DNA of 64,000 nt from Candidatus Hydrothermales bacterium (GTDB taxonomy: Bacteria > Hydrothermota > Hydrothermia > Hydrothermales > JAJRUZ01), in NCBI GenBank assembly GCA_039630575.1, contig JBCNUW010000004.1, positions 56,149 to 120,148 of the forward strand. The letters are read 5' to 3'. The first letter of the stretch is position 1. Each line of letters starts with the position of its first letter. Both the position numbers and the translations under genes were made by a program. The notes under the pieces were generated by a model. The model worked only from the letters and a program-made list of their open reading frames with translations, was not told where the DNA came from and did not search any database. This document shows, piece after piece, positions 16,163-24,911 of the stretch.

Positions 16163-16235
16163 GGGCCCGTAGCTCAACAGGCAGAGCAGCGGACTCATAA
16201 TCCGTTGGTTGTAGGTTCGAGTCCTACCGGGCCCA
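16163..16235 (+). tRNA. tRNA with CAT anticodon, most likely tRNA-Ile2 (lysidine); CCA not encoded
   Basis: GGGCCCG/CGGGCCC acceptor stem, GGA-CTCATAA-TCC anticodon arm, GGTTCGAGTCC T-arm; no fMet C1:A72 mismatch and no GGG/CCC anticodon stem. Confidence 0.92.
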
Positions 16236-16248
16236 TTCCAATTTCTCT

Positions 16249-17091
16249 TTGATCTTTTCCTTTAAAGAAGGTTTTATTAACCTTGATAAACCAAAAATTA
16301 TGGGAATTTTGAATGTGACTCCAGATTCCTTTTTTGATGGTGGAAAATTTTTAGATGTTGATAAAGCTGTGGAATGGGGAAAGTATTTATCAAAGAATGG
16401 TGCTGACATCTTGGATATTGGGGGTGAATCTACAAGGCCATTTTCAGAAGAAGTGCCAATTGAAATTGAACTAAAAAGAGTAATACCTGTTATTGAAAAA
16501 TTAAGAAAAGAAATAGACGTACCAATTTCAATTGATACAAGAAAATCAAAAGTAGCTTTAGAAGCCTTAAAAAAGGGTGCTAACATAGTAAATGATATAT
16601 CAGGACTAAGAGATGATAAAGAAATGGTAGAGGTTGTTAAGAAATTTGATGCAGGTATTGTAATAATGCATATTAGGGGAACACCTAAGGATATGCAAAT
16701 TGATCCCCATTATAAAGACACAGTTAAAGAAATAAAGGAAGAGCTAAAAGAAAAAATAAACTATGCCTTAGAGAAAGGTATTAAAAGAGAAAAAATAGTT
16801 ATTGATCCTGGAATAGGTTTTGGTAAAAGAGTAGTTGATAATCTTTTAATTTTAAAAAAAATTGAAGAGTTTAAAGAACTTAACTTTCCTATATTAGTTG
16901 GTCATTCAAGAAAATCCTTTATAGGTAAAGTTTTAAACTTAGATAAACCTGAAGATAGGGGAATTCCAACACTTGCTATTTCAGCCTATTTATTTTTAAA
17001 AAATATAAATATTTTAAGAGTTCATGATGTGAAAGAAACAAAGGAAGTTTTCATAATTTTAGATGCCCTTTTAAATCCTGATGGGCATTAA
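16249..17091 (+). CDS. folP: Dihydropteroate synthase
   Basis: MGILNVTPDSFFDGG, DIGGESTRP, DPGIGFGK, SRKSF, RVHDV. Confidence 0.96.
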   Translation: MIFSFKEGFINLDKPKIMGILNVTPDSFFDGGKFLDVDKAVEWGKYLSKNGADILDIGGESTRPFSEEVPIEIELKRVIPVIEKLRKEIDVPISIDTRKSKVALEALKKGANIVNDISGLRDDKEMVEVVKKFDAGIVIMHIRGTPKDMQIDPHYKDTVKEIKEELKEKINYALEKGIKREKIVIDPGIGFGKRVVDNLLILKKIEEFKELNFPILVGHSRKSFIGKVLNLDKPEDRGIPTLAISAYLFLKNINILRVHDVKETKEVFIILDALLNPDGH

Positions 17092-18159
17092 AAGATAAAG
17101 ATAGTTAGAAGTACTTTCACCCCTTAAAATACAGGCACTTTCACTCCCTGTAATCCCTATAAAAACAACGTCTTCATCAATATGTCTTAAGATTTCAAGT
17201 AAATAGTTGCAGTTAAATCCTATTTCTATCCTTTCACCTTCATAGAACCCCTTTAATTTCTCATAGCCTTCTCCTATTTCACCAGAAACAGCTTTTACTG
17301 TAAGTGAGTCAGGCGAAAGTGAAAATTGAATAGGATTGTTTGGTGGTGATGTAAAGATGTGAAGTCTTCTTAAAGTTTCCATCAAATCCTGTTTTGAAAT
17401 TTTTAAATTGTTTGGTACATCAACAGGGATAACTGCTCTATAATCTGGAAACTTATCGTCAACGAGGTTAACTATTTCGTATCCATTGCTGAAATTAAAT
17501 TGAATTTTTGTATCTGAGAAAAGTATCTTTATTTGCTCTTTTTTGTAATTTTTTAAGAAGTCAAAACTTTTTGGGTCAACTAAAAAATTTCCCTCTAATC
17601 CATTATTCTCTATTTCTATATCATAAACTCCAAGTCTATGAGAATCAGAAGACACAATAGAAAGCCTTTTTCCTTTTACATCAAGTAAAATGTTATTTAA
17701 AAACTGTCTTGAATCATTCTTTGCTACACAGAATGAAACTTTTTCCACACCCTCTAAAATAATATCTGATGAGATAGTTATTTCATTTTTTCCTGTAACC
17801 TCCTCAACTAAAGGAAATTCCTCTGCTGGTTGAATAAAAAAACTGTACTGTCCTTGTGAAGTGTAAATTATAAGCTCTCTTTCTTCTTTTTTTTCTATTA
17901 AAATTTTTTCATTCTTAAGCCTTGAAGTTATTTCCTTTAACTCCTTTCCCCTTACACATAATGCTCCTTCTTCCTCAACCTCTACTGATCCCTTAACTTT
18001 TAAAGAAAAGTTCAGGTTTGTTGAAAAAAGACTAAGTTCATCTCCTTTTGCTTCTAATTTAATATTTTCTAGAATTGGTAAAGCTGCTCTAGACGGAACT
18101 GCATGGTATACACTTTCAATCATTTTCAAAAATTCATCCTTTGTTATTCTAAATTTCAT
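17071..18159 (-). CDS. dnaN: DNA polymerase III beta sliding clamp
   Basis: PILENI, SDSHRL, FPDYRAVIP, IGFN, LLMPIR; downstream of dnaA. Confidence 0.96.
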   Translation of the reverse strand: MKFRITKDEFLKMIESVYHAVPSRAALPILENIKLEAKGDELSLFSTNLNFSLKVKGSVEVEEEGALCVRGKELKEITSRLKNEKILIEKKEERELIIYTSQGQYSFFIQPAEEFPLVEEVTGKNEITISSDIILEGVEKVSFCVAKNDSRQFLNNILLDVKGKRLSIVSSDSHRLGVYDIEIENNGLEGNFLVDPKSFDFLKNYKKEQIKILFSDTKIQFNFSNGYEIVNLVDDKFPDYRAVIPVDVPNNLKISKQDLMETLRRLHIFTSPPNNPIQFSLSPDSLTVKAVSGEIGEGYEKLKGFYEGERIEIGFNCNYLLEILRHIDEDVVFIGITGSESACILRGESTSNYLYLLMPIRI

Positions 18160-18178
18160 AAATTAAAAGTTCATTATA

Positions 18179-18189
18179 GGATTTGAACC
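18179..18189 (-). promoter_or_regulatory. T-loop-like leader motif GGTTCAAATCC, 19 nt upstream of dnaN
   Basis: AGG-TTCAAAT-CCT; no SD before the ATG. Confidence 0.6.
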
Positions 18190-18194
18190 TCATT

Positions 18195-18323
18195 TTAATA
18201 AAAAATATATAAAATAATTATAATGTTAAAGATGTGGAAATTTAAAACAGCAAGTAATTTAAGTCAAAAGCTTCTTGTGGAAAGTTTGTGGAAAGAGCAT
18301 ATCCTTGTTTATCCACATAAAAT
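18195..18323. other. Probable oriC part downstream of dnaA: AT-rich tract plus DnaA boxes
   Basis: TGTGGAAA boxes starting at 18233, 18276 and 18287; perfect TTATCCACA at 18309-18317; pure A/T tract at about 18195-18224. Confidence 0.75.
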
Positions 18324-22982: not shown

Positions 22983-24224
22983 TTAACCCTCGAACTTTTT
23001 GAATAAAAGAGAGCAATTATGTCCTCCAAAACCAAAAGAATTTGAAAGTGCGTATCTTATCTTTACTTCTCTTGCTCCATCTTTTACATAGTCAAGGTCA
23101 CACTCAGGATCAGGATATTCAAGGTTTATTGTAGGGTGAACTTTTTGATGATATATAGCAAGAACGGTAACTCCAGCTTCTAAGGCTCCTGCTCCTCCAA
23201 GTAAGTGTCCCACCATACTTTTTGTTGAATTTACAGGTATCTTATAGGCTCTCTCCCCCAGAAGTCTCTTTATTGCTAAAGTTTCAGCTACATCCCCTCT
23301 GGGTGTTGCTGTTCCATGGGAATTTATATAGTCTATTTCTTTCGGATCCAAAGAAGCACTATCACAGGCCATTTTCATTGACCTGTAAGCTCCATCTCCA
23401 TCAACACAAGGAGCAGTTATGTGGTATGCATCAGCAGTTGCTCCATATCCGACGAGTTCAGCATAAATCCTTGCTCCTCTTTTCATAGCACTTTCTTTTT
23501 CTTCGAGTATAAGTACAGCACATCCTTCACCCATAACAAATCCGTCTCTTAACTTATCAAAAGGTCTTGAAGCCTTTTCCGGCTCATCGTTTCTTGTTGA
23601 TAATGCTTTCATGTTACCAAAACCCGCAAGTGCAATCGGAGTTAAAGGTGCTTCTGAACCTCCAACTACTATAGCCTTAGCATGTCCGTTTTTAATAAGT
23701 AGCATAGCTTCACCAATAGCATGGGCACTAGAAGCACAGGCAGAAACAACTGAAAAATTAGGACCTTTAAATCCATATTTAATCGAAATAACACCAGATG
23801 CTATATCTGGTATCATCATAGGTACAAGAAAGGGAGACACCCATTTAACACCCTTCTCATACATTTTTCTAATCTCTTCCTCTAATGTAATTATTCCACC
23901 TATTCCAGATGAGATTATGACTCCCACATCTTCCCCTTTGTAAGGAATACCGTTAGCCCATCCTGCATCCTGTAAGGCTTCCTCAGTCACATAAAGAGAG
24001 TATACCGTAAAAAGATCCTGTTTTTTTATCTCCTTACTAGATAATCTTTCTTCTGGATTAAAATTTTTTATTTCAGCTGCAATTTTTGATGGTAAATTTG
24101 AAGTATCAAATCTTTCTATCCTCGAGACCCCACTTTTACCCTTCAATAAATTCTCAAAATTTTCATCTTTATTTTTACCCAGTGATGTAAGTATTCCAAT
24201 TCCAGTTACAACTACTTCCTTCAT
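22983..24224 (-). CDS. fabF: Beta-ketoacyl-ACP synthase II
   Basis: [30 protein letters not shown]. Confidence 0.96.
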
Positions 24225-24457
24225 GTTTTTAGTTTATTTTGAATATACTCAACTGCATCTTTTACTGTTCTGATTTTTTCAGCATCTTCATCAGGAACTT
24301 CAATTCCAAATTTTTCCTCTATCTTCATAACAAGCTCAACTACATCTAAAGAGTCAGCACCTAAATCCTCTTGAAATCTAGCTTCCATTGTAACTTGTTC
24401 TGGAGTTACATTCAATTCTTCTACAATTATGTCTCTCAGAGTTGCAAAAACATCCAT
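24221..24457 (-). CDS. acpP: Acyl carrier protein
   Basis: [14 protein letters not shown] motif; SD AGGAGG. Confidence 0.97.
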
Positions 24458-24480
24458 TAAAATTCCTCCTTTTTATTACT

Positions 24481-24491
24481 GGAATTGAACC
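24481..24491 (-). promoter_or_regulatory. T-loop-like leader motif GGTTCAATTCC, 23 nt upstream of acpP
   Basis: TGG-TTCAATT-CCA downstream of a TTGCTT-18 nt-TAAAAT promoter. Confidence 0.6.
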
Positions 24492-24550
24492 ATTTGAAAA
24501 TAAATTTTAATTTTATTAAAATATAAAAAGCAAGTTAAAGAAAAAATCAA

Positions 24551-24634
24551 GCCGGGGTGACGGAACCGGTAGACGTAGGGGACTTAAAATCCCCTGGGGG
24601 AGACCCCGTGCGGGTTCGAGTCCCGCCCCCGGCA
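24551..24634 (+). tRNA. tRNA-Leu(TAA); CCA not encoded
   Basis: GCCGGGG/CCCCGGC acceptor stem, GGGGA-CTTAAAA-TCCCC anticodon arm, long variable arm, GGTTCGAGTCC; promoter TTGAAA(24494)-17 nt-TAAAAT(24517). Confidence 0.95.
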
Positions 24635-24644
24635 GGCTATACAG

Positions 24645-24911
24645 ATGGCTTCTCGTAAAATTTTCACAATAAGAAATGTCATTGCCGTTATCCTTGCAGG
24701 AGCTCTAGGTGATATTTTAGGTGTTATTCTCAAAAACTTTATACCAAAATCTCCTGCAAGGGATGTAATACTTTACAGTTCAAAGGTTGGTTTAGAAGAA
24801 CTAAAAATTAATCTCATTATAATAGATTTTAAATTTGGATTTATTCTCTCAATTAACATATTATCTTTTGTTCTTATTTTTCTTATGATATATCTTTTAC
24901 AAAAAATTTGA
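24645..24911 (+). CDS. Small membrane protein (DUF4321-like)
   Basis: Two hydrophobic segments; INLIIIDFKFGF..INILS pattern. Confidence 0.65.
   Translation: MASRKIFTIRNVIAVILAGALGDILGVILKNFIPKSPARDVILYSSKVGLEELKINLIIIDFKFGFILSINILSFVLIFLMIYLLQKI

Follow-up and report, generated by a model that had tools for sequence, protein, structure and literature searches.

Two genuine tRNA genes in the 64-kb window analysed here (64,000 nt of contig JBCNUW010000004.1 of Candidatus Hydrothermales bacterium) each lead a gene that lacks a Shine-Dalgarno (SD) sequence, the T-loop of tRNA(CAT) lying 24 nt upstream of folP and that of tRNA-Leu(TAA) 21 nt upstream of a gene for a DUF4321-like membrane protein. 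This layout is real, conserved and not an artefact. Its new aspects are the genome-wide spacing of real tRNAs, their age relative to short free-standing copies of the T-loop (termed mimics), the exchange of tRNAs for mimics and a two-state switch at one orthologous locus; no prior report of a tRNA-leader layout was found in the literature searched, which comprised open papers only. How start codons are chosen without an SD in bacteria is an open question. The genome carrying the window, termed G000, is one of the six genomes of family f1 and was compared with families f2, f3, f8 and f9 of the class.

Architecture of the two tRNA-led loci

The first unit opens with a sigma70-like promoter (TTGAAA-17-TATAAT; 16126..16154, + strand; 11/12 consensus matches) placed directly before tRNA(CAT) (16163..16235, +; tRNA prediction and Rfam), presumably a tRNA-Ile2 as judged by C4-G69, whose CCA end is not encoded. 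The T-loop motif GGTTCGAGTCC (16214..16224, +) ends 24 nt before the TTG start of folP (dihydropteroate synthase; 16249..17091, +; open reading frame (ORF) and Pfam domain), and a pyrimidine-rich 13-nt trailer/leader (16236..16248, +) extends from the discriminator to that codon. The second unit comprises a similar promoter (TTGAAA-17-TAAAAT; 24494..24522, +; 10/12 matches), tRNA-Leu(TAA) (24551..24634, +; tRNA prediction and Rfam), again without encoded CCA, the same T-loop motif (24613..24623, +) ending 21 nt upstream of ATG 24645, and a 10-nt trailer/leader (24635..24644, +). The tRNAs, starts and distances are those given in the initial annotation, and a sequence scan agrees that both gaps are short and empty: neither contains an SD-like 4-mer, no + strand terminator follows either tRNA, and no -10 box lies 5-8 nt before the folP or DUF4321 start. 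Because a near-consensus promoter precedes each tRNA and no terminator follows it, co-transcription of tRNA(CAT) with folP, and of tRNA-Leu with DUF4321, is predicted to proceed from the tRNA promoters. The ATG at 24645, said to head the ispDF unit, does open its first gene, but that gene (24645..24911, +) encodes an 88-aa DUF4321-like membrane protein that is tRNA-Leu-led across the class; the ispDF fusion itself starts at TTG 24908 (24908..26041, +), overlapping the DUF4321 stop by 4 nt.

The TTG proposed as the folP start is upheld by comparison. In 6/6 f1 genomes the start lies 21-24 nt after the T-loop, with TTG, GTG and ATG alternating, the five other f1 genomes retain the tRNA ahead of folP, and in G003 the upstream start directly follows an in-frame stop. 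The alternative ATG, which lies at 16300 and not at 16299, is disfavoured by this codon exchange and by the conservation of the 17 residues upstream of it; the Pfam domain begins at its Met. Four f2 genomes gave a complete folP match (loci L007, L008, L010 and L012), and in these tRNA(CAT) is inverted, and thus divergent, relative to f1.

Spacing of tRNAs and coding sequences across the genome

ARAGORN called 46 tRNAs in G000. Starts were computed uniformly, taking the first in-frame ATG/GTG/TTG or an ATG within 12 nt, and a junction was scored where an ORF of 65 or more codons began on the tRNA strand at most 60 nt from the T-loop. On this basis 26 tRNAs lead an ORF, 5 stand ahead of another tRNA, 6 converge with a neighbouring gene and 9 have nothing near. 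The genome-wide tabulation of distances proposed in the initial annotation returned a narrow distribution. An SD is lacking in 23 of the 26 tRNA-led genes, and in 21 of these the T-loop lies 20-27 nt before the start, the other two being at 40 and 54 nt and none below 20 nt; no long ORF of G000 starts 11-16 nt after a tRNA T-loop. The three SD-led junctions are further off (28, 35 and 37 nt). Starts of tRNA-led genes are often weak (24% TTG, 10% GTG), and CCA is encoded in 1/46 tRNA genes.

General genome compaction, put forward earlier as the simpler alternative, is rejected. Among 295 SD-less co-oriented gaps of 0-49 nt between coding sequences (CDSs), 23% fall at 8-17 nt, a baseline from which the 21/23 junctions depart with p~9e-12, while the two window junctions alone give a weak p~0.10. 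CDS-CDS gaps peak at -4 to +2 (34% at 0-4 nt), and in most of the genomes sampled neighbouring tRNAs stand 0-15 nt apart. The lower bound is hence not set by compaction alone, which would give 0-7 nt gaps; these are absent between tRNAs and CDSs in G000 and G001.

An SD-like motif is found in only about 20-27% of G000 genes. In SD-less genes -10 boxes peak 5-8 nt before the start, which suggests, from sequence, many primary leaderless mRNAs; such a box is present in 2/129 T-loop-led genes. The assembly has a single 16S tail, on a possibly foreign 861-nt contig with 61% GC.

Conservation of the layout and tRNA 3′ maturation

Junction tables were compiled for ten further genomes, covering G001 (47/47 tRNAs), G005 (47/47), G006 (46/46), G008 (43/44), G012 (45/46) and G028 (44/44), and in part G135 (31/46), G011 (31/47), G017 (33/47) and G019 (33/43). 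A peak at 19-28 nt is present in genomes devoid of mimics (G008, 20/21; G012, 8/11; G006, 7/14), and six RNase-PH-positive genomes pooled place 89% of 106 junctions in this range; G019 is not compact and displays no peak. Because mimic-less families share the peak, the real-tRNA layout is, on these comparisons, older than the mimics. Phylum-wide spacing patterns based on ATG only were too noisy to map the trait beyond the class.

The distance is not the fixed ruler that the two window loci might imply, since in the sister clade f3+f9 68% of 68 junctions lie 11-15 nt from the T-loop. Peaks at this distance, often with TTG, were observed in G028 (21/29), G135 (16/19) and G011 (7/13), and the G017 distribution is broad. 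Some of the short-gap proteins of G028, G135 and G011 align to G000 proteins from about residue 1, others align further in or not at all. At loci L357-L368 and L267-L326 of these three genomes most tRNA-led starts fall 0-4 nt after the discriminator, many being TTG. Neither RNase PH nor RNase Z having been found in them, the three genomes are candidates for a novel tRNA 3′ endonuclease combined with leaderless initiation at UUG.

Both states occur at the DUF4321 locus, for which 42 loci were viewed of 58 genomes with a match. The ATG lies 21-27 nt after the tRNA-Leu(TAA) T-loop in 19/22 RNase-PH-positive genomes retaining the tRNA, the remaining three being at 31, 35 and 49 nt, a few with SD-like leaders. 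The f3/f9 gene instead starts with TTG 12 or 14 nt after the T-loop, 1-3 nt after the discriminator (9/9 genomes examined). In f2 (5/5 genomes) the tRNA is replaced by a TATAAT ending 6 nt before the ATG, a leaderless promoter, and the tRNA is absent in f8 (4/4), G019 and G005, the last having no mimic either. DUF4321 thus offers a natural series of arrangements: a tRNA whose T-loop lies 21-27 nt before an AUG or 12-14 nt before a UUG, a leaderless promoter, and an SD-like leader.

Ahead of the enzyme searches, the short-gap clade was predicted to differ in RNase PH or RNase Z. RNase PH was found in 44/61 class genomes and in 0/9 f3 and 0/7 f9 genomes, the TruB control being found in 16/16 f3/f9 genomes; G142, also without an RNase PH match, has no short-gap excess. 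In a DnaE tree (29 sequences, FastTree), f3+f9 form one clade with support of 0.999, so the absence of RNase PH matches and the short gap count as a single event. The idea that the pre-tRNA acts as a leader coupled to 3′ processing stands in part: the gap changes in the clade without RNase PH matches, which partly supports a link between gap length and tRNA 3′ maturation, but this is one evolutionary event and no statistical correlation.

Canonical RNase Z above cut-off was found in 0/31 genomes, the Thermotoga type in 0/61, RNase E/G in 0/31 and RNase J in 0/5; a metallo-beta-lactamase of G028 was not counted as RNase Z, its match being weak (E 3e-6). All six f1 genomes encode a 245-aa RNase Z-like metallo-beta-lactamase without the exosite region (profile ~153-200), in G000 at C78:10557-11294 (L260), which may be another kind of phosphodiesterase and has weaker relatives in the mimic-less f8. 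G000 further has motif matches to RNase Y, RNase P RNA and protein, PNPase, TrmFO and TrmI, a CCA-enzyme-like gene and a six-domain bS1. Such motif searches can overlook genes: TruB was missed twice and later found, and blanks for RNase III and YbeY are uninformative. Taken with the layout, the searches point to a further tRNA 3′-end nuclease in those bacteria that yielded no match to RNase Z, E/G or J.

These data bear on a doubtful but serious possibility, namely tRNA punctuation, in which a T-arm-guided endonuclease would cut the trailer and release a leaderless or near-leaderless mRNA, RNase PH would trim the tRNA, and the mimics would be minimal cut signals. It is favoured by the starts at 11-15 nt in the clade lacking RNase PH (0/16, with TruB in 16/16), by the predicted burial of these starts in the intact precursor (see below), by the apparent abundance of primary leaderless transcripts in G000, by the exchange of tRNA for leaderless promoter in f2, by the exosite-less RNase Z-like protein in 6/6 f1 genomes and by plant t-elements, which bear the same GGTTCRANYCC motif (PMC1920247). 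Against it stand the absence of RNase Z, E/G and J matches in the genome sets given above, the singleness of the RNase PH event, the broad G017 distribution, the lack of a short-gap excess in G142 and the occurrence of RNase Z-like matches in f8, which has no mimics. A variant in which the cut leaves a leader of lineage-typical length was rejected for G000, where SD-less promoters imply leaders of 0-1 nt and not of 10-13 nt.

Free-standing T-loop mimics and their exchange with tRNAs

Outside called tRNA and transfer-messenger RNA (tmRNA) genes, G000 contains 93 copies of GGTTCRANTCC, two of which are tmRNA fragments; the GGTTCGAGTCC variant carried by both window tRNAs occurs in 0/93 of these copies. 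The motif numbers 131-219 copies per f1 genome (six genomes) versus 36-62 in the 25 others. With one mismatch allowed, 119 free copies lie 12-40 nt before the 1710 predicted starts, against 3 at 62-90 nt. Mimics of SD-less genes have a median distance of 20 nt to the start and SD-bearing ones lie at 21-39 nt. The claim that tRNAs and mimics share the same distance is thus only approximately correct, the tRNA-led median being 23-24 nt against 20 nt for the SD-less mimics (p~0.001; 13 tRNA-led and 84 mimic-led genes).

In the 119 one-mismatch sites G52, G53, U54, A58 and C62 are invariant, and C56 varies in 8%. One extra base pair extends the mimic stem in a clearly enriched manner (65% vs 34%), the next two weakly and none further, and no acceptor-like helix was found beyond this weakly extended stem. 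The -10 boxes located 9-15 nt upstream of some mimics place the motif inside the RNA. A role in DNA, be it within a promoter or through an ops-like hairpin of the non-template strand recruiting a NusG paralogue, by analogy to RfaH, to bring ribosomes to SD-less genes, is highly improbable: the motif is short with a stem of 2-3 bp, and tRNA(CAT) contains a weak promoter-like match (9/12, chance level), but the tolerated changes obey T-loop grammar, as the invariant positions reveal, no -10 box lies between motif and start, and the upstream boxes would have the motif transcribed. Cleavage at the discriminator-equivalent position (+11) of mimics, as punctuation would have it, is disfavoured too. 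Mimics have no acceptor helix, the cut would precede the upstream stop in 11/21 mimics lying inside a CDS and leave non-stop upstream mRNAs, and 9/35 SD cores of mimic leaders start at or before this position; a cut near the AUG would strip the SD from many SD-bearing leaders.

Six SD-less genes provide a view of how mimics relate to tRNAs: each stands right behind a tRNA in one f1/f2 genome but has been displaced from it, by more than 40 nt, in an f1 genome. A mimic is present 21-33 nt before the start at 4/6 displaced leaders (after Ala-CGC, Gly-TCC, Arg-TCG and Gly-GCC), compared with a baseline of 49/187 (p~0.04); those after Arg-TCG were identified by eye as GGTCC variants, and G000 has a degenerate copy after Gly-GCC. 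In G005 a close match to a tRNA-Ala acceptor strand comes after the Ala mimic, which so represents a copied tRNA-Ala 3′ end, and a degenerate tRNA-like remnant after G005 tRNA-Pro(TGG) (L120) has its T-loop 22 nt before the next ATG. These two are plausible intermediates on a path from tRNA 3′ ends to mimics, which would suggest a lineage-specific initiation signal born from tRNA 3′ duplications. That the mimics are minimal versions of the tRNA layout, as first supposed, is supported in part by the swaps, by the tRNA-Ala copy and by the greater age of the tRNA layout, but not by the displaced leaders of Phe and Pro-GGG, where no mimic is present.

The swaps also bear on passive geometry, in which genes would ride strong tRNA promoters while deletion bias shortens the trailer to the minimum single-stranded length on which a ribosome can land. 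Under this quite unlikely explanation 11 nt of tRNA plus 9-16 nt yield 20-27 nt without a role for the T-loop. The agreement with the mimics would arise since both sit just outside the footprint, and weak starts would damp expression. SD-less initiation at unstructured regions is reportedly known, the layout exists in mimic-less families, it is tightest where genomes are AT-rich and compact, as in G008, G006 and G019 showing a looser one, and some displaced leaders manage without a mimic. Passive geometry leaves unexplained, however, why a T-loop copy arises once the tRNA is displaced, and the 0-7 nt gaps of plain compaction are missing before CDSs in G000 and G001.

Possible translation of an intact tRNA-led message

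We tentatively favour, at a little under even confidence, a reading of the sequence data in which the message is translated with the tRNA attached, the T-arm lying just outside the 30S footprint, and the tRNA is trimmed out later. The tRNA would form the 5′ leader of a shared transcript driven by the tRNA promoter, the 9-16 nt A/U-rich trailer would serve as a single-stranded landing pad for the ribosome with its full six-domain bS1, and a putative contact of the T-loop with the ribosome or a tRNA-binding protein would take the place of SD pairing. Later, an endonucleolytic cut or decay of the mRNA would free the tRNA, and RNase PH/PNPase trimming and CCA addition would follow. In f1 the signal may have been reduced to the 11-nt T-loop hairpin and spread to about 7% of genes, and f3+f9 may have switched to a cut at the discriminator.

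Several observations are in line with translation of the intact message. The start region is mostly unpaired in the intact precursor (predicted 0.72-0.77), and at the window loci a complete tRNA fold lies in cis, beyond the 30S footprint; minimum-free-energy folds of the T-arm were not used, as the T-arm was misfolded. In E. coli the 30S footprint starts between -15 and -20 (bioRxiv 10.1101/2025.04.04.647229), and the 17-nt minimum of the mimics is close to that edge. The spacing of tRNA-led genes, about 3 nt longer than that of mimics, would be expected if the helix shortens the reach. In vitro, cis-placed tRNAs raised translation 2-6.3-fold (PMC9142559), so that the layout, if so read, would be a natural case of this enhancement. 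In Caulobacter and mycobacteria, leaderless translation works poorly with short leaders and with starts other than AUG (PMC4633059; bioRxiv 10.1101/2020.05.06.081141), and a released 10-13 nt SD-less leader with UUG is therefore disfavoured.

Other points weigh against this reading. The constructs of PMC9142559 kept an SD, their effect needed tertiary structure and did not follow T-loop sequence, and the 11-nt hairpin has no D-loop to complete the elbow. The swaps make up a small test (p~0.04) at loci chosen by eye, two of its displaced leaders (Phe, Pro-GGG) have no mimic, and G005 lost the tRNA before DUF4321 without gaining one. The leaderless promoter of f2 DUF4321 (5/5 genomes) suits a cut model, and with the start 1-3 nt from the discriminator the scheme is inapplicable in f3+f9. 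In that clade the predicted fold leaves the start half buried next to the acceptor helix (0.40-0.47 unpaired), so a cut at the discriminator seems necessary; yet UUG is a poor leaderless start in the model bacteria of the sources cited above, and RNase Z was not found. The broader proposition, that the T-loop is a ribosome-binding signal throughout the class, with genuine tRNA genes serving SD-less operons as ribosome-binding site, an 11-nt hairpin spread in f1 to more than 100 genes and, in the sister clade, a discriminator cut made by an enzyme other than RNase Z, UUG-started leaderless mRNAs and a dispensable RNase PH, appears unlikely.

Comparison with known systems

By analogy, the system works like a cis-tRNA enhancer, and in the sister clade like mitochondrial punctuation. 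As with the yjdF riboswitch and synthetic cis-tRNA leaders, in which a tRNA-shaped cis element upstream of an ORF raises translation and for which direct ribosome binding, possibly at the E-site, has been proposed (PMC9142559), a tRNA shape precedes the ORF here. There the element ahead of the SD is an engineered tRNA or a mimic under ligand control, whereas here genuine decoding tRNAs lead SD-less genes with narrow spacing at about half of the tRNA loci, alongside an 11-nt stand-alone version. No Rfam yjdF match is present in the window, which has only tRNA matches, and the system is not a yjdF family member.

In mitochondrial tRNA punctuation and at plant t-elements, too, mRNA 5′ ends are preceded by tRNAs or tRNA-like elements that share this T-loop motif (PMC1920247), and the f3+f9 layout, with starts 1-3 nt after the discriminator, resembles that of animal mitochondria. 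The t-elements are larger tRNA-like folds dependent on RNase Z/P; the present mimics lack an acceptor stem, and canonical RNase Z was found in 0/31 genomes. A start beside the 3′ cut site, as in t-elements, is seen only in f3+f9, G000 having a 9-16 nt trailer, and G000 thus fails two defining features of t-element processing. The RNase PH, PNPase-like, RNase Y-like and CCA-enzyme-like genes of exonucleolytic 3′ maturation (PMC5499597) are present here too; this lineage departs from that pathway in that nearly all tRNA genes have no CCA and the trailer doubles as a translation leader.

SD-independent A/U-rich initiation and leaderless mRNAs share with the present genes the lack of an SD, A/U-richness, bS1 and the frequency of leaderless promoters, but they need no upstream structured element and have no fixed spacing to one. 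T-arm microhelices are substrates of TrmFO, TruB and TrmA, and TrmFO-like and TruB genes are present here. For TrmA a minimal T-arm is a substrate. TrmFO requires no more than a stem-loop that has G53-C61 and U54U55C56 (PMC6418473), and the passage cited describes no role in translation initiation; by comparison, C56 is among the variable positions of the mimics.

Additional features

Six free mimics of the window lie on the - strand. Three precede an ATG without SD, namely at 18179..18189 (19 nt before dnaN), 45156..45166 (18 nt) and, with one mismatch, 10671..10681 (18 nt). An SD is present at 24481..24491, 23 nt before the acpP ATG, and at 5637..5647, 26 nt before a phosphate-binding-protein-like gene, and the copy at 39257..39267, 17 nt before the bactofilin ATG, falls within the 3′-terminal part of the preceding CDS. 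The dnaA-dnaN region (17071-19691) that includes the mimic-led dnaN is situated between the two tRNA units and converges on folP.

A practical consequence concerns start-codon annotation, for which TTG and CTG starts after tRNAs should be considered. A phosphomutase-like gene apparently starts with CTG 27 nt after the T-loop of tRNA-Thr(CGT) (G000 C34, 21623-21696, -; and L127 in G001), and in relatives with TTG, GTG or ATG at 21-23 nt. The rpmB-like (L28-like) genes are tRNA-led in several lineages by different tRNAs (Leu-CAA, Glu-CTC and Gly-TCC; G000 C8, L167, L361 and L270), with the gap of each lineage, the G135 assignment being made by eye from the N-terminus.

A second T-arm on contig C22 proved to be the cut-off native tmRNA, whose 3′ end lies at the contig edge before tRNA-Leu(CAG), and not a new RNA. 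Contigs C35, C46, C48 and C83 of G000 hold a second tmRNA, the sole 16S tail and extra tRNAs, and may be foreign to the bin. A near-duplicate tRNA-Asp with anticodon TTA (L235; G012 C2:225836-225909; weak Rfam score of 34) is possibly a pseudogene or an integration remnant.

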